Shown: positions 5,680 through 32,000 of the stretch, one piece after another
Position numbering within the stretch: position 1 is the first letter of the stretch
How the letters are laid out: every line of letters starts with the position of its first letter
Assembly (NCBI RefSeq): GCF_009734345.1
Contig: NZ_CP032551.1
Coordinates: 300,001-332,000 of the forward strand
Origin: Pseudidiomarina andamanensis
GTDB lineage: Bacteria; Pseudomonadota; Gammaproteobacteria; Enterobacterales; Alteromonadaceae
Direction of reading: 5' to 3'
Length of the DNA: 32,000 nt
Translations under genes and position numbers: made by a program
Notes under the pieces: model-generated
The model's database searches: none
Told to the model about the DNA's origin: nothing
What the model saw: the letters and a program-made list of their open reading frames with translations, nothing else

Positions 5680-6930
5680 GTGGAAAGCTCTGCATTGATT
5701 ACCAATGACGGTATTATTTTTGGCTTGCTGGCCGTAATTCTCGGTCTTATTTTTTATACGCAAACCAGTTCAAATAGTTTTTGGCAAAAGTTTTATAAGT
5801 GGGTTCCAGCCTTATTACTTTGCTATTTTATTCCTTCGTTGCTCAACACTTTTGGCATTGTCGATGGCGCCAACACCGGAATCTATCCGCTGGTGATGGA
5901 TTATCTACTGCCAGCCTGTTTGGTGTTGCTAACATTAAGTTTGGATTTGAAAGCCATTCTGCGACTCGGTCCAAAGCTACTTATTCTCTTTTTAACCGGT
6001 ACTGTCGGTATTGTTATCGGCGGGCCGATTGCGCTGCTGATTGTTAGCGCTATTTTCCCTGAAATGCTCGGCGGTGCAGGCCCAGATGCCGTATGGCGCG
6101 GCATGACCACCATCGCGGGTAGCTGGATTGGCGGTGGTGCTAACCAAGCCGCAATGAAAGAAGTATATGAAGTTGGCGGTGAGATTTTCTCAGCAATGGT
6201 CACCGTTGACATTATTGTGGCGAACTTATGGATGGCTGTGTTGCTGTATATGGCGGCGAATAACAACGCCATCGATAAGCGAATTGGCGCGGACACTAGC
6301 GCGATTGAATCGATTAAAAGCCGGATGGAACAGTACGAAGCTGAACATCGTCGCGAATCAAAATTACCGGATTTGATGTTTATTGTGGCGGTTGCGTTTG
6401 GCGTGACTGGTTTGTCGCATTGGGGTGCCGACGTCATTGCACCGTATATTGCCGATCATGTTCCAGCGTTAAAAGACTTTAGTTTAGACAAGAAATTCTT
6501 CTGGTTGATCGTGATTGCAACCACGGTAGGCGTCGCGTTGTCGTTTACACCAGCACGCAAGCTTGAAGGCGTTGGCGCATCGAAATATGGCTCTATGTTT
6601 GTCTATATTTTGGTTGCAACCATTGGTTTGCATATGGACGTGACAGCCATTGTGGATGTGCCAAAATACTTCTTGATTGGTGCTATTTGGATGATTATTC
6701 ACGCCAGCTTAATGTTGGTGGTCGCTCGTCTACTCAAAGCACCAGTATTCTATATGGCAGTAGGTAGCCAAGCGAATGTTGGTGGCGCAGCTTCGGCACC
6801 CGTTGTGGCTTCTGCGTTTCATCCATCATTGGCGCCGGTAGGCGTATTGTTGGCAGTGTTTGGTTATGCATTAGGCACCTACATGGCCTATATTTGTGGA
6901 CAGATTTTGCGCGTCATTGCCAACGGCTAA
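5680..6930 (+). CDS. DUF819-family polytopic membrane protein
   Basis: GTG start after AAGGGG. 416 aa with about 10-12 TM helices. The motifs IAGSWIGGGANQAAM and VGSQANVGGAASAP are as I recall for DUF819 proteins. Function unknown. Confidence 0.7.
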   Translation: MESSALITNDGIIFGLLAVILGLIFYTQTSSNSFWQKFYKWVPALLLCYFIPSLLNTFGIVDGANTGIYPLVMDYLLPACLVLLTLSLDLKAILRLGPKLLILFLTGTVGIVIGGPIALLIVSAIFPEMLGGAGPDAVWRGMTTIAGSWIGGGANQAAMKEVYEVGGEIFSAMVTVDIIVANLWMAVLLYMAANNNAIDKRIGADTSAIESIKSRMEQYEAEHRRESKLPDLMFIVAVAFGVTGLSHWGADVIAPYIADHVPALKDFSLDKKFFWLIVIATTVGVALSFTPARKLEGVGASKYGSMFVYILVATIGLHMDVTAIVDVPKYFLIGAIWMIIHASLMLVVARLLKAPVFYMAVGSQANVGGAASAPVVASAFHPSLAPVGVLLAVFGYALGTYMAYICGQILRVIANG

Positions 6931-22850: not shown

Positions 22851-22890
22851 TCAAAAGTGCTTAATTTCTCAGCAGTCAGCTGTACTTGCC

Positions 22891-22919
22891 TTGCGAGTGC
22901 ACTGGCTTTGAGGGATAAT
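22891..22919 (+). promoter_or_regulatory. Candidate sigma70 promoter for ffs
   Basis: TTGCGA (22891-22896), 17 bp spacer, GATAAT (22914-22919), placed just upstream of the SRP RNA. Confidence 0.5.
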
Positions 22920-22931
22920 GCCCGCCGTTAT

Positions 22932-23046
22932 GGTGACCTCATTGGTCCCCCCGCAACACGAACTGGCGAACCCGGTCAGGCCCGGAAGGGAGCAGCCGTA
23001 GTCAGGGATGTGGGTGCCGGGGTGCTGGCTGGTGAGGTCGCCACCC
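22932..23046 (+). ncRNA. ffs: Signal recognition particle 4.5S RNA
   Basis: ggtgacctcattggtcccccgcaacacgaactggcgaacccGGTCAGGcCCGGAAGGgAGCAGCCgtagtcagggatgtgGGTGCCGGGgtgctggctggtgaggtcgCCACCC. It is colinear with E. coli 4.5S RNA, including the conserved domain IV loop (GGTCAGGTCCGGAAGGAAGCAGCC). The 5' end ggtgacctc pairs with the 3' end gaggtcgcc, and the sequence ends in CCACCC. Confidence 0.93.
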
Positions 23047-23062
23047 AATCATCTTCCAAAAG

Positions 23063-23237
23063 CGTAATTCGTGCGCTTCGCTGTTCGTCCGTTCACTTCG
23101 TTCTTTGTTCGTTCGCTGCGCTTTTCGTGAAAAGCGTTACTCGTTATTCGATCGCTTTGCTTGTCGTTATTGGAAAAAACAGACACACTAAAGCAAAGGC
23201 GTTACTCGAATAACGAATAACGATTAACGAACAACGA
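23063..23237. repeat. Intergenic heptamer-array inverted repeat (family copy 3, left arm degenerate)
   Basis: The right arm gcgttactcgaataacgaataacgattaacgaacaacgag (23199-23237) faces a long degenerate CGTT-rich left arm (23063-23172). The reverse complement of 23134-23172 (ccaataacgacaagcaaagcgatcgaataacgagtaacgc) matches copy 1 (aataacgacaag..gcga..gatcgaataacgaataacg), so the core is in the opposite orientation to copy 1. Confidence 0.75.
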
Positions 23238-24645: not shown

Positions 24646-25015
24646 GCAGAAGCATTATTCCTAAAGTTAAAGTATCTAACTGATTGATGCTTGAGTCTAA
24701 CGTAAATTAATGAAGTACAAAATAAAGATTTTTGTGTCATAATTTTACGGGTAATTATGCAGTTTAAATTACGTTTTATGCAGAAGTGTTAAGATGCTGT
24801 AAACGAGGTTTTATCTATATTTAGTGTGAATTTTAGCTGATATCCGTTGTTGACATCGCCGCGTCGATCGTGGGAGTATTGATGCATTATTACCGTAGGC
24901 TTTCTATCGGTAATAGCTGCAAGTGTTGATTAAACTCTTTTCGTCACTCAAATAACTGGGAGGCTGGCGACATTAGGTCGTTGAGCTTAAAGTTAAGTCA
25001 AATTGGTTGGGAACT

Positions 25016-25798
25016 ATGACCAAAGTAATCAATAAAAGCAAAGTTGCTGCAGCCCTTATCGGGATGTTCGCAATTGCAGGTAGCGCTAGCGCAGCTGCCC
25101 AAGACATTTCTACGTTGCAAAACGAAGAAGCAAAAACACATACTGCTGACAAACGGTCTCAGCAAAAAATCGATTCTTTGTTCGAGCAGAGCCAAGAGTT
25201 GTTATATGAGTACCGTGCCGTTGTAGACGAATACGAAAACTTAAAAGTCTACAATGATCACGTTCAGCGTCTCGTTGATGATCAGAATGCATCACTGGCT
25301 TCTCTACAGCGCCAGATCGACGGCATTGAAGCAACCAAGCAAGGCGTGGTTCCTTTAATGTACAACATGATCGACGCTTTGGAGCAGTTTGTGGAGCTGG
25401 ATCTTCCAATTCACAAAGAGCGTCGTATGGCTCGTGTTGAGCGTTTACGCGAAATCATGAGTGCTTCAAACGTAACGACCTCAGAACAGTTCCGTCAGAT
25501 TACTGAAGCTTATCAAGCTGAAATGGATTACGGTGCTGGTCTTATCGCATACGAAGGCAAGTTACAGTTCGAAGGCGAAGAAATCTCTGTTGACTTCTTC
25601 CACTTAGGACGTGCTGCTTTAATGGCTCAATCTTTGGACCTGAAAAACGGTTGGATTTACAACAAAGATACGGGCGCATGGGAAGCTCTTGATGATGCTT
25701 ACCTGGGCGCTTTGACCAAAGCAATTCGTATGGCGCGGAAGCAAACCGCCCCTGATCTGATTAAACTGCCTATCTATGCAGCGGAGCGTGCAGAATGA
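25016..25798 (+). CDS. DUF3450-family periplasmic coiled-coil protein (TtpB-like first gene of a TonB2-type operon)
   Basis: The signal peptide MTKVINKSKVAAALIGMFAIAGSASA is followed by a coiled-coil-rich region. It sits immediately upstream of, and ATGA-overlapped with, the TtpC-like gene, as in Vibrio TonB2 clusters. The tracked start at 25007 is a TTG, so I chose the ATG at 25016. Confidence 0.75.
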   Translation: MTKVINKSKVAAALIGMFAIAGSASAAAQDISTLQNEEAKTHTADKRSQQKIDSLFEQSQELLYEYRAVVDEYENLKVYNDHVQRLVDDQNASLASLQRQIDGIEATKQGVVPLMYNMIDALEQFVELDLPIHKERRMARVERLREIMSASNVTTSEQFRQITEAYQAEMDYGAGLIAYEGKLQFEGEEISVDFFHLGRAALMAQSLDLKNGWIYNKDTGAWEALDDAYLGALTKAIRMARKQTAPDLIKLPIYAAERAE

Positions 25799-27156
25799 AC
25801 AAACTAGTGAAATCTTTGCTGGTCGCAGCAGCATTCTCATTATCAGCTGGCGCGAGCTCTGCTTACGCGCAAGATGAAGCGAAATCACTAGACCAATTAC
25901 TTGAACTAGTGAAAGAAAACCGTGCAGCGTCTCAGCGTATCAACGCGCAGCGCGAAGCTGAGTTCACATCAGAGCGCGCTGACAAACAAGCATTGTTAAA
26001 CGATGCGAAGCGTCAGCTAGCAAACGAAAAAGCTCGCGGTGAGCGTTTGCAAGCGGAGTTCGCTGAAAACGAAATCGCACTTGCAAACAAAGAACAAGAG
26101 TTGCAAAACGCTCTTGGTACTTTGGGTGAAATCGTTGGTGTTGCGCGTGGTGCAGCTTCTGAAACTATCGGTCGTATCGCGACTTCAATCGTAAGCGCAC
26201 AGTATCCAGGTCGTGAAGACGTATTGGAAACTATCGCTGAAGCAAAAGAAGTTCCGACGATTGCTGAGCTTGAAGAGCTTTGGTTAGCATGGTTAACCGA
26301 AATGAAAGAGTCAGGCAAAGTTGTTACTTTCAACAGCGATGTGACATTACTTGATGGTTCAACTGAGAACCGTGACGTAACTCGTATCGGTGTGTTCAAC
26401 TTGATTTCTCAAGGCGAGTACTTCAACTACAACGACGCTGCTGAAGAAATTCAGCCATTGGGTCGTCAGCCAGAAGATTATGTATTGGCAACTGTTGAAG
26501 CGTTTGAAGAAACTGAAACTGGTTACGAAGGTTTATACATTGACCCAGCTCGTGGTCAAATTTTGAACCTTGCAACTCAGAAGGCAACACTTGAAGAGCG
26601 CTATCATCAAGGTGGCACAGTTGGTTATGTAATCACTGTAGCTCTTATTGTTGGTTTCTTGATTGCTATCTACAAGTTCATCACTTTAGGTATTGAAGGT
26701 GCGAAGATGCGCGCTCAGTTGAAAAATACTGCGAACCCATCTGACAAAAACGCACTTGGCCGTATCTTGAAAGTGTATCAAGAGAACAAAACTGCTGACA
26801 CTGAGAACCTTGAGTTGAAACTTGATGAAGCTATCTTGCGTGAAACGCCACGCATCGACAGCGGCGTTAACATCATCAAGATTTTGGCGGCTATCGCGCC
26901 ATTGTTAGGTCTCTTAGGTACAGTTGTTGGTATGATCGGTACCTTCCAATCAATTACCTTGTTTGGTACTGGTGATCCGAAAATCATGGCAGGCGACATC
27001 TCAATGGCGTTGGTTACTACCGCATTGGGTCTGATTGCTGCGTTGCCATTGATTCTTGTACACGCGATTGTGGCATCACGCGCCAAGTCTATTGTTCATG
27101 TATTAGATGAACAGGCTGCAGGTATCGTCGCCGCGCACGCGGAGAAGAAGGAGTAA
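25795..27156 (+). CDS. ttpC: TtpC-like large MotA/TolQ/ExbB-family proton-channel protein
   Basis: 453 aa. It has a signal peptide, a long periplasmic coiled-coil N-terminal domain and a C-terminal MotA/ExbB channel domain (APLLGLLGTVVGMIGTFQSI, ISMALVTTALGLIAALP). Confidence 0.8.
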   Translation: MNKLVKSLLVAAAFSLSAGASSAYAQDEAKSLDQLLELVKENRAASQRINAQREAEFTSERADKQALLNDAKRQLANEKARGERLQAEFAENEIALANKEQELQNALGTLGEIVGVARGAASETIGRIATSIVSAQYPGREDVLETIAEAKEVPTIAELEELWLAWLTEMKESGKVVTFNSDVTLLDGSTENRDVTRIGVFNLISQGEYFNYNDAAEEIQPLGRQPEDYVLATVEAFEETETGYEGLYIDPARGQILNLATQKATLEERYHQGGTVGYVITVALIVGFLIAIYKFITLGIEGAKMRAQLKNTANPSDKNALGRILKVYQENKTADTENLELKLDEAILRETPRIDSGVNIIKILAAIAPLLGLLGTVVGMIGTFQSITLFGTGDPKIMAGDISMALVTTALGLIAALPLILVHAIVASRAKSIVHVLDEQAAGIVAAHAEKKE

Positions 27157-27160
27157 TCCT

Positions 27161-27685
27161 ATGGTCTACCTGGTGGAGCTCTGGGAATCTATCAGGGATT
27201 TTCTGGGTACCGGTGGCGACGTCTTGTACGTCGTCATGGGGGCGCTCTTTCTCATGTGGGTTCTCATGATTGAGCGTTATTGGTTCCTGACCGGCGTATT
27301 CCCTAAGCTGAAGAAACAAATCATCAGCGACTGGGATGCCCGGAAAGATACCACCTCATGGTACGCTCACAAAATCCGTGATGCATGGATTTCTGAAGCC
27401 GACGAAAAACTAAATGCGCGTATTTTGTTGATCAAAACCTGCGTAGCGATTTGTCCGTTAATCGGACTACTAGGTACCGTAACGGGTATGATTGCAGTAT
27501 TTGAAATCATGGCTGTACAAGGTACCGGTAACCCACGCTTGATGGCGTCGGGTATTTCGATGGCAACAATCCCGACAATGGCGGGCATGGTTGCAGCATT
27601 GTCAGGTATGTTCTTCGCCTCTCGCTTAGAAGCACGGGTGCGTCGAGCGAAAGAAAGATTGATCGACAGTTTGCCACATCATTAA
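27161..27685 (+). CDS. exbB: ExbB (MotA/TolQ/ExbB proton channel), TonB2-type
   Basis: The ATG at 27161 is preceded by GAAGGAG. The upstream extension in the ORF track overlaps ttpC. Channel motifs CPLIGLLGTVTGMIAVFEIM and ISMATIPTMAGMVAAL are present. Confidence 0.88.
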   Translation: MVYLVELWESIRDFLGTGGDVLYVVMGALFLMWVLMIERYWFLTGVFPKLKKQIISDWDARKDTTSWYAHKIRDAWISEADEKLNARILLIKTCVAICPLIGLLGTVTGMIAVFEIMAVQGTGNPRLMASGISMATIPTMAGMVAALSGMFFASRLEARVRRAKERLIDSLPHH

Positions 27686-27697
27686 GAGAGAAGAATT

Positions 27698-28099
27698 ATG
27701 GCACGTAAACGTTTTCGTGAAGAGGAAGATGCAGCGATCGATATGACGCCGATGCTCGACATCGTATTCATCATGTTGATCTTCTTCATCGTAACCACCT
27801 CTTTCGTTAAAGAAGCTGGTATTGACGTGAACAAGCCAGAAGCGAGTCAGGCGGAGAAGAAACCTTCTGCCAACATCTTTATCGCAATTCGTGCGAATGG
27901 CGAAGTTTGGATGGACAAGCGTATGGTTGATGTAGAGCGTGTAGGCGCGAACATCGAACGTCTATTGGCAGAACAGCCAACTGATATCGTAGTGATTCAG
28001 GCGGACAAAGAAGCCAAGCATGGTGTTGTCGTAAAAGTCATGGATCAAATTAAGGAAGCGGGTATTGACAAGATATCCATAGCCGCAGAGGACGATTAA
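27698..28099 (+). CDS. exbD: ExbD/TolR biopolymer transport protein
   Basis: 133 aa. DMTPMLDIVFIMLIFFIV contains the conserved TM Asp, followed by a periplasmic domain. It lies between exbB and tonB. Confidence 0.9.
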   Translation: MARKRFREEEDAAIDMTPMLDIVFIMLIFFIVTTSFVKEAGIDVNKPEASQAEKKPSANIFIAIRANGEVWMDKRMVDVERVGANIERLLAEQPTDIVVIQADKEAKHGVVVKVMDQIKEAGIDKISIAAEDD

Positions 28100-28100
28100 T

Positions 28101-28712
28101 ATGGTGCGCTTTATAGTATCAATACTATTAGGTGCTGCAGCTACGTTCCTTCTGTTCGCTTTCATGGCTTTTTTGATTAGCGGCGGTGAGGGACGTAACG
28201 AAGGTCCACCACCGACTGCACCGATCGAACTTGTAACAACGCCACCGGATTCGGATGTGGATCAGCGTCGCCGTACGCCACCACCACCTCCGCCTCCGCC
28301 TCAGCAACCGCCTGAGACTCCGCCAAACGAGCCTGATACTTCAGACTCAGATGGTATGAATCTCGACTTAGGTTTTGAGGTAGATGTTGGTGGTACCGAT
28401 ACAGGCTTGAACGCTGGCGGTTTGATGGTTCGCGACGGTGAAGCAACACCTATCGTTCGTATCAACCCACGCTATCCGCCTGCAGCGGCACGTGACGGTA
28501 TTCAAGGTTGGGTGCAATTGCGCTTTACAATCGACGAAACCGGCGGTGTAACTGACGTTGAAGTTATCGACTCAGAGCCACGTCGTGTGTTTGACCAAGA
28601 AGCTCGTCGCGCATTATTGCGTTGGAAGTACAAGCCGAAGGTTGTTGACGGTAAAGCTGTACGCCAGCCAGGTCAGACGGTCCAGCTCGACTTTACGTTG
28701 GATATGGAGTAA
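28101..28712 (+). CDS. tonB: TonB energy transducer (TonB2-type)
   Basis: N-terminal TM anchor, a Pro-rich spacer (RRRTPPPPPPPPQQPPETPPNEP), and a C-terminal TonB domain (YPPAAARDGIQGWVQLRFTIDETGGVTDVEVIDSEP..FDQEARRALLRWKYKP). Confidence 0.92.
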   Translation: MVRFIVSILLGAAATFLLFAFMAFLISGGEGRNEGPPPTAPIELVTTPPDSDVDQRRRTPPPPPPPPQQPPETPPNEPDTSDSDGMNLDLGFEVDVGGTDTGLNAGGLMVRDGEATPIVRINPRYPPAAARDGIQGWVQLRFTIDETGGVTDVEVIDSEPRRVFDQEARRALLRWKYKPKVVDGKAVRQPGQTVQLDFTLDME

Positions 28713-28715
28713 TAG

Positions 28716-30023
28716 ATGATGCACAAAAAACTCACAACATTAATTAGTGCGAGTGTATTGTGTACTGTGATGGCAGCCGCACCAGCGCCTGCCGCCTCAC
28801 AAGAAATCAATTACAACTTGCCATCGGCTGAACAAGTCGAAGCTGCCAAGCAAAGCCGCCGCAATCAGACGGTTAGCGAGCGTGTTGGCCGTCGTTTGAT
28901 GACTGCATTGGACTTATATACCGAAGAAGAAGACACTAAAGGTGCTATCGCTATTTTGGTGGAAATTGACCCAAGTAGTGAATTTGATACCGCTTATGTG
29001 AATCGTTTTCTCGGTAATCTCTATGCAGCGGACGGTCAAGAGCGTAAAGCATTTGATTTGGTCAAACGTGCAGCTGATGCTGATGTTCTAGGTCATGGCG
29101 ACCAAGCATTGGTGTTGAAGTTAACTGCAGACCTAGCATTGCAGCTTGAAGAATACCGTACTGCACTAACCTACTACGGTAAGTGGTTACAGTTTACTGG
29201 TGAAGCTGATCCAGATGTGTTTTTGCGAATTGCGAATGCTTTTTATGAGTTGAAGCAATTTGACAAAATTGTTCGCCCAGCAGATTTAGCAATTCAAGCT
29301 TATGAAGCTGAAGGTGAAGTCAACAAAAACCCATATGTGTTAAAAGTTGCAGCTTACTACGAGACTGAGCAGTACAAAGAAGCAATTAAAGTACTTGAAG
29401 TCGGTTTGAATAAACTACCTACTGAGAAAGTATGGTGGAGTCAGTTAGGCATGCTTTATATGCTGACTGAGAATATCGACAAAGCGTTACAAACGTTAGA
29501 AATTGCGTATCTTGCAGGTTATTTGGACAAAGAAAGCCAGATTAAGGCGATGATCCAACTGTTTGCTAACTCGCAAATTCCATACAAAGCAGCCACTCTT
29601 ATGGTTAAGCATTTAAATGCTGGCGATATTGAGAAAACTGCTCGTAACTACCAAAGTGCGGCAAGTAGCTTCGAGCAAGCTCGTGAATATGCTAAAGCAG
29701 CAGAAATGTACGGTTTATCAGCGAATCTCCAAGAGACTCAAGCTGACAAGGCCGAGTTCTTCCGTCGTCAAGGTAACGCTTACCTTCGCGCAGAACAGTA
29801 CATGAAAGCAGCTGACGCTTATATGAAAGCTTTAGACCAAGGTATTGAAGAGCCAGGTCGTGTATATATGTCTTTAACGGAAGCTTATTTCTATGAAAAC
29901 AATTTCCGTGAAGCATTGAAATATGTACAAGAAGCGAAGAAACATCGTGACCAGCGTCGCAATGCGGCAAGTTGGGAACAGTATATTCGCCAAAAAGCTT
30001 CTAATCGCGGCGTTTCACTGTAA
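28716..30023 (+). CDS. TPR-repeat periplasmic protein (TtpD-like last gene of the TonB2-type operon)
   Basis: Signal peptide followed by multiple TPR-like helical repeats. It occupies the terminal position in the operon, as in Vibrio TonB2 clusters. Confidence 0.7.
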   Translation: MMHKKLTTLISASVLCTVMAAAPAPAASQEINYNLPSAEQVEAAKQSRRNQTVSERVGRRLMTALDLYTEEEDTKGAIAILVEIDPSSEFDTAYVNRFLGNLYAADGQERKAFDLVKRAADADVLGHGDQALVLKLTADLALQLEEYRTALTYYGKWLQFTGEADPDVFLRIANAFYELKQFDKIVRPADLAIQAYEAEGEVNKNPYVLKVAAYYETEQYKEAIKVLEVGLNKLPTEKVWWSQLGMLYMLTENIDKALQTLEIAYLAGYLDKESQIKAMIQLFANSQIPYKAATLMVKHLNAGDIEKTARNYQSAASSFEQAREYAKAAEMYGLSANLQETQADKAEFFRRQGNAYLRAEQYMKAADAYMKALDQGIEEPGRVYMSLTEAYFYENNFREALKYVQEAKKHRDQRRNAASWEQYIRQKASNRGVSL

Positions 30024-30054: not shown

Positions 30055-30083
30055 AAAACCCCGCTTTTTAGCGGGGTTTTTTT
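30055..30083 (+). terminator. Rho-independent terminator after the TonB2-type operon
   Basis: aaaaccccgc / gcggggtttt stem with a 6 nt loop and a 7-T run. Confidence 0.88.
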
Positions 30084-30098
30084 GTTTCTCTTGAACTA

Positions 30099-30127
30099 TT
30101 GTTATAGAAGACATGTCGAATTAAAAA
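30099..30127 (+). promoter_or_regulatory. Candidate sigma70 promoter for the Cys-Gly repeat peptide operon
   Basis: TTGTTA (30099-30104), 17 bp spacer, TAAAAA (30122-30127), about 43 nt upstream of the ATG at 30170. Hexamer match only. Confidence 0.2.
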
Positions 30128-30169
30128 ATGCTAGTCTATTGATCGAGAACAACATAAGAGGAATTCTCC

Positions 30170-30514
30170 ATGAAAGCGATGAAAAAATCAGTTTCAGTAG
30201 CAGTGGGTGCATTATTAGTAAGTGCAGCGGGTGTAACAGCTTCTGCGAATCCATTTGGTTTTACTGAGTTACCTGGTGGCTATCAGCAAGAGCAGCAACA
30301 GCAACAGAAGCAAGAAATGCGTTGCGGCGGAAACAAAGATGCCAAGAAAGCCAAAGAAGGCAAATGTGGCGAAGGCAAGTGCGGTGAAGGCAAATGTGGT
30401 GGCGACAAAGCCATGGAAAAAATGGACGAGAAAGCTAAAGAACGCATGAGCGAGAAAGCCAAAGAAGGTAAATGTGGCGAAGGCAAATGTGGCGAAGGGA
30501 AGTGCGGCGCATAG
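30170..30514 (+). CDS. hvfA: Secreted Cys-Gly repeat precursor peptide (HvfA-like RiPP metallophore precursor)
   Basis: RBS AAGAGGA. Sec signal peptide MKAMKKSVSVAVGALLVSAAGVTASA-NP. The mature part is Lys/Glu/Gln-rich with 7 Cys, every one followed by Gly: MRCGG plus two blocks of EGKCGEGKCGEGKCG. It lies directly upstream of, and overlaps, a DUF692 gene. Confidence 0.8.
   Translation: MKAMKKSVSVAVGALLVSAAGVTASANPFGFTELPGGYQQEQQQQQKQEMRCGGNKDAKKAKEGKCGEGKCGEGKCGGDKAMEKMDEKAKERMSEKAKEGKCGEGKCGEGKCGA
30356..30508 (+). repeat. Two blocks of three 15 nt coding repeats (EGKCG x3, spacer, EGKCG x3)
   Basis: Block 1 (30356-30400): gaaggcaaatgtggc gaaggcaagtgcggt gaaggcaaatgtggt. Block 2 (30464-30508): gaaggtaaatgtggc gaaggcaaatgtggc gaagggaagtgcggc. 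All differences are synonymous third-base changes. Confidence 0.95.
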
Positions 30515-31314
30515 TTGGTTTAGGATTACGACGGGAGTTCTTAGCGGACGTTTTGCAACAGAATCCCGTCGTCGATTTTTGGGAAATCGCACCAGAAAAT
30601 TGGCTCGAGCGTGGCTATGAAGCAACCTATCAGCTTGATCGCCTGCGCGAGCATTACCCGTTGTTTTGCCATGGTCTCTCGCTGTCTATTGGCAGCCCCG
30701 ATCCGTTAGACGAATCTTTTATATTAAAGATTAAAGCATTTCTCGAACGCTTCAATATCGACCGTTATAGCGAACATTTAAGCTATTGCTCGGCAGGCGG
30801 TCATTTGTATGATTTACTGCCTATCCCTTTCAGTGAAGAAGCTGCCGATTATGTTGCACAGCGTGTGAAGCGCGTTCAAGAGCTATTAGAGCGTCCTTTG
30901 ATATTAGAAAATGTTTCGTACTATGCGCCGGCCGCAACGGAACTTAATGAACTTGAGTTCATTAATCGCGTGTTAGAACAAGCCAATTGTGAACTGTTAC
31001 TTGATGTGAATAATGTGTTTGTGAATAGCGTCAACCATCAGTACGACCCAATTCAATTTATCAAGGGATTACCAACTGAGCGCATCAGTTATGGGCATAT
31101 TGCCGGACACTTTGAAGAAGAACCTGACCTGCTCATTGATACGCATGGTGCACCAGTGCGCCCCGAAGTATTAGAGTTACTGGCATTAAGTTATGAGCAT
31201 CATGGCCCATTTCCGGTGTTGTTAGAACGTGACTTCAATATTCCACCTTTAGCCGAGCTATTGAAAGAAATGCAGGCAGTCAAAAATGTAACGCAACAGC
31301 CTGAGGTTGCATGA
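30502..31314 (+). CDS. hvfB: DUF692-family multinuclear non-heme iron oxidative enzyme (MNIO; MbnB/HvfB/BufB-like RiPP maturase)
   Basis: Motifs are as I recall for DUF692 TIM-barrel proteins: VGLGLRREF, DFWEIAPENW, HGLSLSIGS, YSEHLSY, ILENVSYY, LLDVNNVFVNSVNHQYDP, YGHIAGH, LLIDTHGAPV, and PVLLERDFNIP. The likely start is the GTG at 30502 (MRRIVGLGLRRE), which overlaps the precursor stop by 13 nt. The tracked 30472 start only reads through the precursor repeats in another frame. Confidence 0.85.
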   Translation: MRRIVGLGLRREFLADVLQQNPVVDFWEIAPENWLERGYEATYQLDRLREHYPLFCHGLSLSIGSPDPLDESFILKIKAFLERFNIDRYSEHLSYCSAGGHLYDLLPIPFSEEAADYVAQRVKRVQELLERPLILENVSYYAPAATELNELEFINRVLEQANCELLLDVNNVFVNSVNHQYDPIQFIKGLPTERISYGHIAGHFEEEPDLLIDTHGAPVRPEVLELLALSYEHHGPFPVLLERDFNIPPLAELLKEMQAVKNVTQQPEVA

Positions 31315-32000
31315 GTAATTTTCAGCGTATTCAACAACAATGGTCGCAGTGGTTGCGTCAACCGGATAGCGCTGAACGGCCAAATGTCGAAGGGCGACGT
31401 TTAAAGGTGTATCAGCGGTTGGTTCGTAACAACATAGAAAGTTTTATCACAAGAGGCTTTCCGGTGTTGTTCAGCACTCTGACTACAGAGCAGGAACGTG
31501 AAATGCTGCGCGCCTTTGTGGCAACGCATCAATCAAAGTCACCGCTATTTTCGGCGATTGGAGCTGAATTTGTTGAATTTTTAGCGACGTTTGAAGCGCC
31601 ATGGTTACCTGAATGGAGTTATCAACTCGCTGTTTACGAACGTATGGAAGTTGATGTCTATCATTTTGACTTGCCTTGTATTTTACCGCCGCTTGATACC
31701 GAACTAGAGCAAGTTGTTTGGCAAGTAAACCCATCACTGCAGTGGCATGCATTTGATTATCCCGTGCACACCATTCAACCTGACATCATTCCGAGTGAAC
31801 CGCTTGAGCAGCCATGTTATTTGGCGGTATATCGCGTTGATGACATCGGCAATGATAATTTCACGTCCGCGGTCAAATTTCTGCAACTTAATGCTGTTAC
31901 CATGATGCTTGTCGATTATTTGATTCAGCGTCCTCATCTTACACTGCTGGCAATTGCTGAACATCTAGCCGGTCAGTTACCACAATTTTCGCCAGAACAA
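31311..32000 (+). CDS. hvfC: DUF2063-family RiPP maturation partner (MbnC/HvfC/BufC-like), C-terminus beyond the window
   Basis: Absent from the ORF track because it is open at the window end. There is an ATGA overlap with the DUF692 stop. The 230 codons have no stop: MSNFQRIQQQWSQWLRQPDSAERPNVEGRRLKVYQRLVRNNIESFITRGFPVLFSTL..LRAFVATHQSKSPLFSAIGAEFVEFL. The pattern (R..VY..LV..N....L...FP ... H.S.SP....G..F..FL) fits DUF2063 proteins, which partner with DUF692 enzymes. Confidence 0.75.
   Translation, partial: MSNFQRIQQQWSQWLRQPDSAERPNVEGRRLKVYQRLVRNNIESFITRGFPVLFSTLTTEQEREMLRAFVATHQSKSPLFSAIGAEFVEFLATFEAPWLPEWSYQLAVYERMEVDVYHFDLPCILPPLDTELEQVVWQVNPSLQWHAFDYPVHTIQPDIIPSEPLEQPCYLAVYRVDDIGNDNFTSAVKFLQLNAVTMMLVDYLIQRPHLTLLAIAEHLAGQLPQFSPEQ

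Follow-up and report, generated by a model that had tools for sequence, protein, structure and literature searches.

The end of a 32,000-nucleotide stretch of the Pseudidiomarina andamanensis genome (positions 300,001 to 332,000 of contig NZ_CP032551.1; hereafter the window) very probably carries a three-gene hvfABC operon of the ‘captophorin’ or oxazolin type, which specifies a ribosomally synthesized and post-translationally modified peptide (RiPP). By analogy with characterized homologs, the product of this operon would, with the same high probability, be an exported, cysteine-modified peptide that binds copper, and its physiological role is the least certain part of this explanation. What is directly seen is the structure of the genes, their family membership, the conserved metal-ligand motifs, the features of a signal peptide and the coupling of the operon.

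The operon is already known and already annotated in public databases. An exact look-up in RefSeq returned an identical trio named for P. andamanensis as ‘HvfA family oxazolone/thioamide-modified RiPP metallophore’, ‘HvfB family MNIO-type RiPP peptide maturase’ (MNIO, multinuclear non-heme iron-dependent oxidative enzyme) and ‘HvfC family RiPP maturation protein’ (accessions in Table 1). An earlier note on this DNA had presented this instance as uncharacterized, with its chemistry, metal specificity and physiological role as new data; its identification is not new, since RefSeq names exist and the family has thousands of members, but organism-specific biochemistry would be.

Family membership of the three proteins

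All three proteins score above the cut-offs of the NCBIfam HvfA, HvfB and HvfC family models, which was the profile comparison proposed in the earlier note. HvfA scores 37.7 bits against NF050137 (KCGExKCG_twice, HvfA family; cut-off 19.5) with two stretches matched, HvfB scores 400.1 bits against NF003818 (HvfB family MNIO maturase; cut-off 360), and the 230 of 253 HvfC residues encoded in the window score 193.8 bits against NF050145 (HvfC family; cut-off 142). The Pfam matches, PF05114 for HvfB (E value 6.8e-103) and both PF09836 and PF22106 for HvfC, agree with the previous reading of the second and third genes as DUF692 and DUF2063, and the HvfA precursor has no Pfam match, DUF2282 included. 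HvfB also falls below the BufB equivalog NF050167 (276.7 bits, cut-off 310) and the MbnB equivalog TIGR04159 (37.5 bits, cut-off 325), and it groups with HvfB/BufB enzymes, far from methanobactin MbnB. It is because of this pattern of NCBIfam models passed and not passed that the proteins are assigned to the HvfABC family and that an ortholog of the Haemophilus precursor, a bufferin and a methanobactin are excluded. The earlier description of the operon as ‘methanobactin-like’ is thus appropriate at the level of the superfamily, but not on the score against the MbnB model.

The HvfA precursor and its EGKCG repeats

The first gene, hvfA, encodes a 114-residue product in which each of the seven Cys residues (52, 66, 71, 76, 102, 107 and 112) is followed by Gly and six lie in exact EGKCG pentapeptides, just as had been described from the sequence before. 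The pentapeptides start at residues 63, 68, 73, 99, 104 and 109 and form two triple clusters (residues 63-77 and 99-113), and the order of elements along the protein is a signal peptide (residues 1-25), the segment NPFGFTELPGGY (27-38), a Gln-rich stretch, an RCG tripeptide containing C52, and the two triple EGKCG modules. Tandem Repeats Finder reports two arrays in the gene, each with a 15-nt unit present in 3.1 copies; among the six 15-nt units all differences fall at third codon positions, and every unit encodes EGKCG. This synonymous-only variation shows selection on the peptide, so the repeat is kept at the protein level and not by recent DNA duplication. The repeat also gives rise to an antisense open reading frame of 118 codons (30269-30625), which was disregarded.

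By inspection, the N-terminus of HvfA has the build of a Sec signal peptide and not that of a classical leader: basic residues K2, K5 and K6 (n-region) precede a hydrophobic core (h-region, residues 7-22) and an A-S-A sequence at -3/-1 before N26 (c-region). This layout matches 65 homologs and agrees with the cleavage after ASA proposed in the earlier note. Directly after the cleavage site, the motif NPFxxxxLxxGY(M/Q/L) is found in 65 of the 65 EGKCG precursors that could be aligned (loci L005-L085); in HvfA it occupies window positions 30248-30283. The precursors encoded beside HvfB relatives (n = 65) have in common the order signal peptide, NPF..GY segment and EGKCG repeats. It is plausible that the NPFxxxxLxxGY segment is a docking site for the RiPP recognition element (RRE) of HvfC, and a term search of the preprint on the related fontiphorin system (PMC12668002) returned no mention of this motif.

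HvfB, HvfC and the coupling of the three genes

The HvfB sequence aligns with the HvfB-like structure 3BWW from Histophilus somni (E value 2.8e-72) and keeps the motifs CHG, SEHLS, ILEN, LDVNN, GHIAG, DTHG and LERD, including the positions aligned with the site-3 ligands N175, D242 and H244, which HvfB has been shown to require. Candidate metal ligands are H57, H92, E136, D168, N170/N171, H199, D213, H215 and E243, an equivalence drawn from alignment with 3BWW and with MbnB motifs, not from a structure of this protein.

Gene callers disagree on the length of HvfB (270, 275 or 280 residues), as three in-frame starts (ATG 30472, ATG 30487 and GTG 30502) precede the stop codon at 31312-31314. In relatives, in-frame stops leave only the start that lies four codons before a conserved VGLGLR sequence, so the hvfB start is GTG 30502 and the product has 270 residues. 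The longer forms from ATG 30472 or ATG 30487 were rejected on account of these upstream stops in relatives, and an exact look-up of the 280-residue version gave no match. The additional starts reflect the repeat itself: across 30464-30504 the codons of each EGKCG unit, GAAGGNAAATG or GAAGGGAAGTG, produce a Shine-Dalgarno-like GAAGG and, after it, an ATG or GTG in frame with hvfB, and the true GTG start falls within the last EGKCG unit of hvfA.

The overlap of hvfA with hvfB is 13 nt and that of hvfB with hvfC is an ATGA; together with a start codon that is conserved across relatives, these overlaps indicate co-translation. Both overlaps, as well as the strong terminator that precedes the three genes, had been noticed previously and are borne out here. 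The hvfC gene starts at ATG 31311 and has 230 of its 253 codons in the window. The gene ends 72 nt beyond the window, at position 11571 of L005, a P. andamanensis genome contig that extends 9.3 kb past the window end and shows no difference from the window in the final 10 kb compared. The N-terminal domain of HvfC aligns with structure 3DEE (E value 7e-6).

Table 1. Features of the hvfABC region, in window coordinates
Feature	Position	Strand	Evidence or remarks
Intrinsic terminator of the upstream TonB2-type operon	30055..30080	+	11-bp stem with 6 G-C pairs, T tail; conserved in Pseudidiomarina
hvfA upstream region	30081..30169	+	Shine-Dalgarno-like AGAGGA at 30157-30162
hvfA, 114-aa RiPP precursor	30170..30514	+	Family model; RefSeq WP_156265837.1
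hvfB, 270-aa MNIO (DUF692) maturase	30502..31314	+	Family model; 3BWW; WP_445936688.1
hvfC, DUF2063/RRE partner protein	31311..32000 (in-window part)	+	Family model; 3DEE; WP_310942367.1

Comparison with characterized systems

Two EGKCG members, oxazolin and fontiphorin, have been characterized. In Haemophilus influenzae, HvfBC causes a loss of 4 Da at each of the six EGKCG cysteines, both proteins are needed, the modified HvfA binds Cu(I) and shows absorbance at 302 nm, and Escherichia coli cleaves off the Sec signal peptide of HvfA (PMC11252979). The earlier note was right that EGKCG repeats plus a signal peptide mark the H. influenzae HvfA class (PMC11252979). The oxazolin HvfABC(X) system of nontypeable H. 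influenzae (PMC11252979; bioRxiv 10.64898/2026.06.05.730506) shares with the P. andamanensis operon a Sec signal and C-terminal EGKCG repeats in the precursor, the gene order precursor, MNIO, DUF2063/RRE partner, passage of the HvfB- and HvfC-family models, and metal-ligand motifs in common with 3BWW. In contrast, oxazolin HvfA has three AEGKCGEGKCG doubles where this precursor has two triple EGKCG runs, and an N-terminal disulfide pair where this precursor has one extra Cys (RCG). The host also differs, as oxazolin is made by a pathogen and P. andamanensis is a marine or saline free-living bacterium. In addition, the four-gene hvf operon with HvfX contains a DoxX-family gene, whereas none is present here in the window or 9 kb downstream, an absence that the earlier note had recorded up to the window end; DoxX/HvfX is an optional component of hvf clusters (PMC12452194).

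The fontiphorin FonABC system of Fontimonas thermophila, of the ‘captophorin’ class (PMC12668002), resembles the P. andamanensis operon in its EGKCG repeats, seven Cys sites, a triple run and an MNIO with a PME1 partner. FonBC removes 4 Da at every EGKCG Cys, to give 5-thiooxazoles in a product that binds Cu(I) (PMC12668002). All seven sites of FonA are modified, including a run of three repeats, and Arg is tolerated at the Lys position (PMC12668002), so there is precedent for processing of the triple modules found here. An alanine scan of FonA found no single position to be essential (PMC12668002). The linkers and N-region of the two precursors differ in sequence.

The bufferins BufABC (DUF2282/Buf2; PMC11626156, PMC12452194) also combine a signal-peptide precursor, a closely related MNIO and a DUF2063 partner, and their product is a periplasmic thiooxazole copper sink; the P. 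andamanensis locus differs from them in its DUF2282-negative precursor, its sub-threshold BufB score and its lack of extracytoplasmic function (ECF) sigma factor, NrsF and DoxX genes. Methanobactin MbnABC has in common with HvfABC the MNIO superfamily (PF05114) and a four-electron oxidation of Cys that yields a copper ligand, but its precursor has a leader peptide in place of a Sec signal, its partner protein is a different one (MbnC), its chemistry is oxazolone/thioamide, and it is a secreted chalkophore taken up by a TonB-dependent receptor.

A proposed pathway for HvfA modification and export

These characterized homologs are the source of the modification chemistry, of the sequence in which modification and export would take place, and of the copper binding proposed here. 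HvfA would be made as a 114-residue precursor and bound in the cytoplasm by the HvfC RRE, for which NPFxxxxLxxGY may be the docking site. HvfC and the iron-dependent oxidase HvfB would then use O2 for a four-electron oxidation (-4 Da) that converts EGKCG cysteines to 5-thiooxazoles; six modified sites are expected, and a seventh, R-C52-G, is possible. The modified peptide would be exported by Sec, with removal of the signal peptide after Ala25, and the mature HvfA, a Lys- and Glu-rich peptide of ~89 residues, would bind Cu(I) in the periplasm through its thiooxazoles. Published evidence on the role of EGKCG peptides leans to copper sequestration under metal or oxidative stress; the mature peptide would most probably act as a copper sink under these conditions.

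Several observations weigh against this proposal. The HvfA precursor falls well below the equivalog model for H. influenzae HvfA (NF050188; 23.1 bits, cut-off 95), and on these scores it is a family-level member and not an ortholog of that protein. Modification of the isolated C52 is doubtful because one-repeat FonA peptides are not processed in vitro (PMC12668002). On the + strand of the hvfA upstream region (30081-30169), no sigma-70-like site was found and no promoter was located, and no DoxX, sigma/anti-sigma or copper genes, the classes that the earlier note had proposed to look for beyond the window, are encoded in the 9 kb past its end or in the 30 kb before the cassette. With no copper-responsive regulator, DoxX gene, copper-resistance gene or promoter nearby, a link to copper stress is without local support. 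Post-translational modification, export and metal binding of HvfA in P. andamanensis are also extrapolated from homologs.

Alternative products and roles

One alternative concerns the chemistry. The oxazolin product was originally assigned as methanobactin-type (PMC11252979), with each Cys turned by HvfB into an oxazolone and thioamide pair; the NCBIfam name still reads oxazolone/thioamide, and the loss of 4 Da is the same for that pair as for a 5-thiooxazole. This chemistry, which the earlier note had given, alongside thiooxazole, for DUF692 enzymes, is hardly to be expected here, as the HvfBC product has since been reassigned to 5-thiooxazole, by those who first described it as well as by an independent group (from alkylation, heteronuclear multiple-bond correlation spectroscopy and comparison with methanobactin), and P. 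andamanensis HvfB sides with the HvfB/BufB enzymes rather than with the MbnB model. Another alternative is that copper binding is not the main function of the peptide, which would instead buffer redox changes or oxidative stress in the periplasm or bind another soft metal such as Zn, Hg or Au. Oxidative stress and several heavy metals have been connected with these clusters in the literature, and no copper gene lies near the locus. However, Cu(I) is bound by every EGKCG or DUF2282 product characterized, and copper is the inducer that they have in common, so such a role is considered unlikely.

The modified peptide could also serve in copper acquisition, as a chalkophore whose uptake is energized by the TonB2-type system encoded directly 5′ of hvfA, an idea of a kind that has been raised for oxazolin (PMC11252979). 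This operon (window 25007-30023) encodes a DUF3450 protein, a long ExbB/MotA protein, ExbB, ExbD, TonB and a 435-residue TPR protein, and the same DUF3450-ExbB-ExbB-ExbD-TonB-TPR series precedes hvfABC in ~20 Idiomarinaceae and three Alteromonadaceae loci. Furthermore, three genomes examined that lack hvf genes also lack a TonB2-type cluster 5′ of the genes that follow hvfABC in P. andamanensis (orf41-apt, see below). Nevertheless, the TonB2-type operon ends in a strong terminator that is kept across Pseudidiomarina and separates it from hvfA, and the genes 5′ of hvfA in other Alteromonadaceae (pilus genes, nadE, glnB, glycosidases and RND efflux) are unrelated to it, so that a functional link between hvfABC and the TonB2-type operon was judged unlikely. 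The Sec pathway reaches only the periplasm, the locus encodes no outer-membrane exporter or TonB-dependent receptor, and what induces these clusters in published work is an excess of metal rather than starvation for it. A role in copper acquisition is therefore very improbable. Scarcely any weight is given to its more specific form, in which a DoxX-less hvfABC fixed behind the TonB2-type operon in Idiomarinaceae makes a TonB2-coupled periplasmic or released chalkophore, with triple modules that alter copper stoichiometry or geometry relative to the pairs of oxazolin. A periplasmic copper sink made of 5-thiooxazoles is preferred over these alternatives.

Related loci and variation in module number

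Searches for HvfA in the literature have found >3,000 sequences, and a dedicated profile identified ~2,000 non-redundant Buf_EGKCG/oxazolin precursors, whose clusters may or may not include DoxX (PMC12452194). Among 6,906 captophorin precursors that contain repeats, EGKCG is the repeat seen most often (PMC12668002). Our genome scan with HvfB returned 80 loci, most of which have an EGKCG precursor with 2 to 18 EGKCG units directly upstream. Of 81 loci, 9 encode DoxX near hvf, and all 9 lie outside Alteromonadales. The order TonB2-type operon, hvfABC, orf41, receiver gene (in some loci) and apt is kept in ~20 Idiomarinaceae loci and in a few Alteromonadaceae loci; as a conserved arrangement, the placement of hvfABC next to the TonB2-type operon is confined to Idiomarinaceae.

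The closest relatives, Idiomarina sp. 34-48-12 (HvfB 93% identical) and P. tainanensis (84%), have precursors of 142 residues with three triple modules, compared with two in the window (30356-30514). The module missing from the P. andamanensis precursor corresponds to a clean in-frame difference of 81 nt between GGYGGYGAYAAAGCC direct repeats, plus one Gln codon. The 114-residue form is present in three NCBI assemblies and in several independent metagenome contigs, so it is not the result of an assembly collapse.

Four Nitrosomonas loci (L056, L066, L070 and L071) have a two-domain multicopper-oxidase-like gene directly 5′ of hvfA, and three of these (L066, L070 and L071) have bacterioferritin and DUF2325 genes further upstream. 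This copper-related neighborhood is not matched at the Pseudidiomarina locus.

Sequences flanking the operon

Alignment of 16 regions upstream of hvfA identified AACTATT (30094-30100) as the only block conserved across the genus, followed 17 nt later by TGTC/CGTx. This arrangement vaguely resembles an ECF-type promoter, and the resemblance is too weak for a promoter to be called. The palindrome GACATGTC at 30110-30117 is present in only the three closest genomes.

On L005, the end of hvfC is followed by an open reading frame of 41 codons that encodes a single helix, a gene for a receiver-domain protein, apt, dnaX, ybaB, recR, htpG and adk, and no good terminator was found before apt. The 41-codon frame (orf41; product MAHDENFRD...LPAILGWYKFFSA) is a membrane open reading frame at L005 11616-11741, 117-242 nt past the window end. 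A profile search placed it in a family of ~108 clusters, all annotated as ‘hypothetical’ and confined to Alteromonadales, for which there is no Pfam or NCBIfam model. It was considered as a fourth hvf gene that replaces DoxX, and this was rejected because orf41-apt-dnaX occurs without hvf nearby. Indeed, orf41 always lies just 5′ of apt-dnaX, with or without hvfABC, and it adjoins these genes in Kangiellaceae, Glaciecola and Ningiella genomes that have no hvf genes nearby, so that orf41 belongs with apt.

The receiver-domain protein is a stand-alone, CheY-like receiver of 131 residues (L005 11766-12161), with gaps of 24 nt to orf41 and 8 nt to apt. Its gene is found between orf41 and apt in Idiomarinaceae and in a Corallincola metagenome-assembled genome (L081) and is absent from Alteromonadaceae. 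The rest of the window is composed of housekeeping genes; it also encodes a 416-residue DUF819 membrane protein (5680-6930), and it contains an open reading frame of 118 codons (22857-23213) that has no family match and is not called in the public annotation.

Significance

With thousands of members catalogued, two of them characterized, and models that already label these proteins, the identification of hvfABC in P. andamanensis matters little beyond correct annotation. However, because it is small, has six or seven sites arranged around two triple modules and comes from an operon that lacks DoxX, this HvfA could prove a convenient substrate. In this way, its analysis could help to illuminate the role of the class, the processing of isolated and triple sites, the dependence of copper stoichiometry on module number, and docking through the NPFxxxxLxxGY segment.

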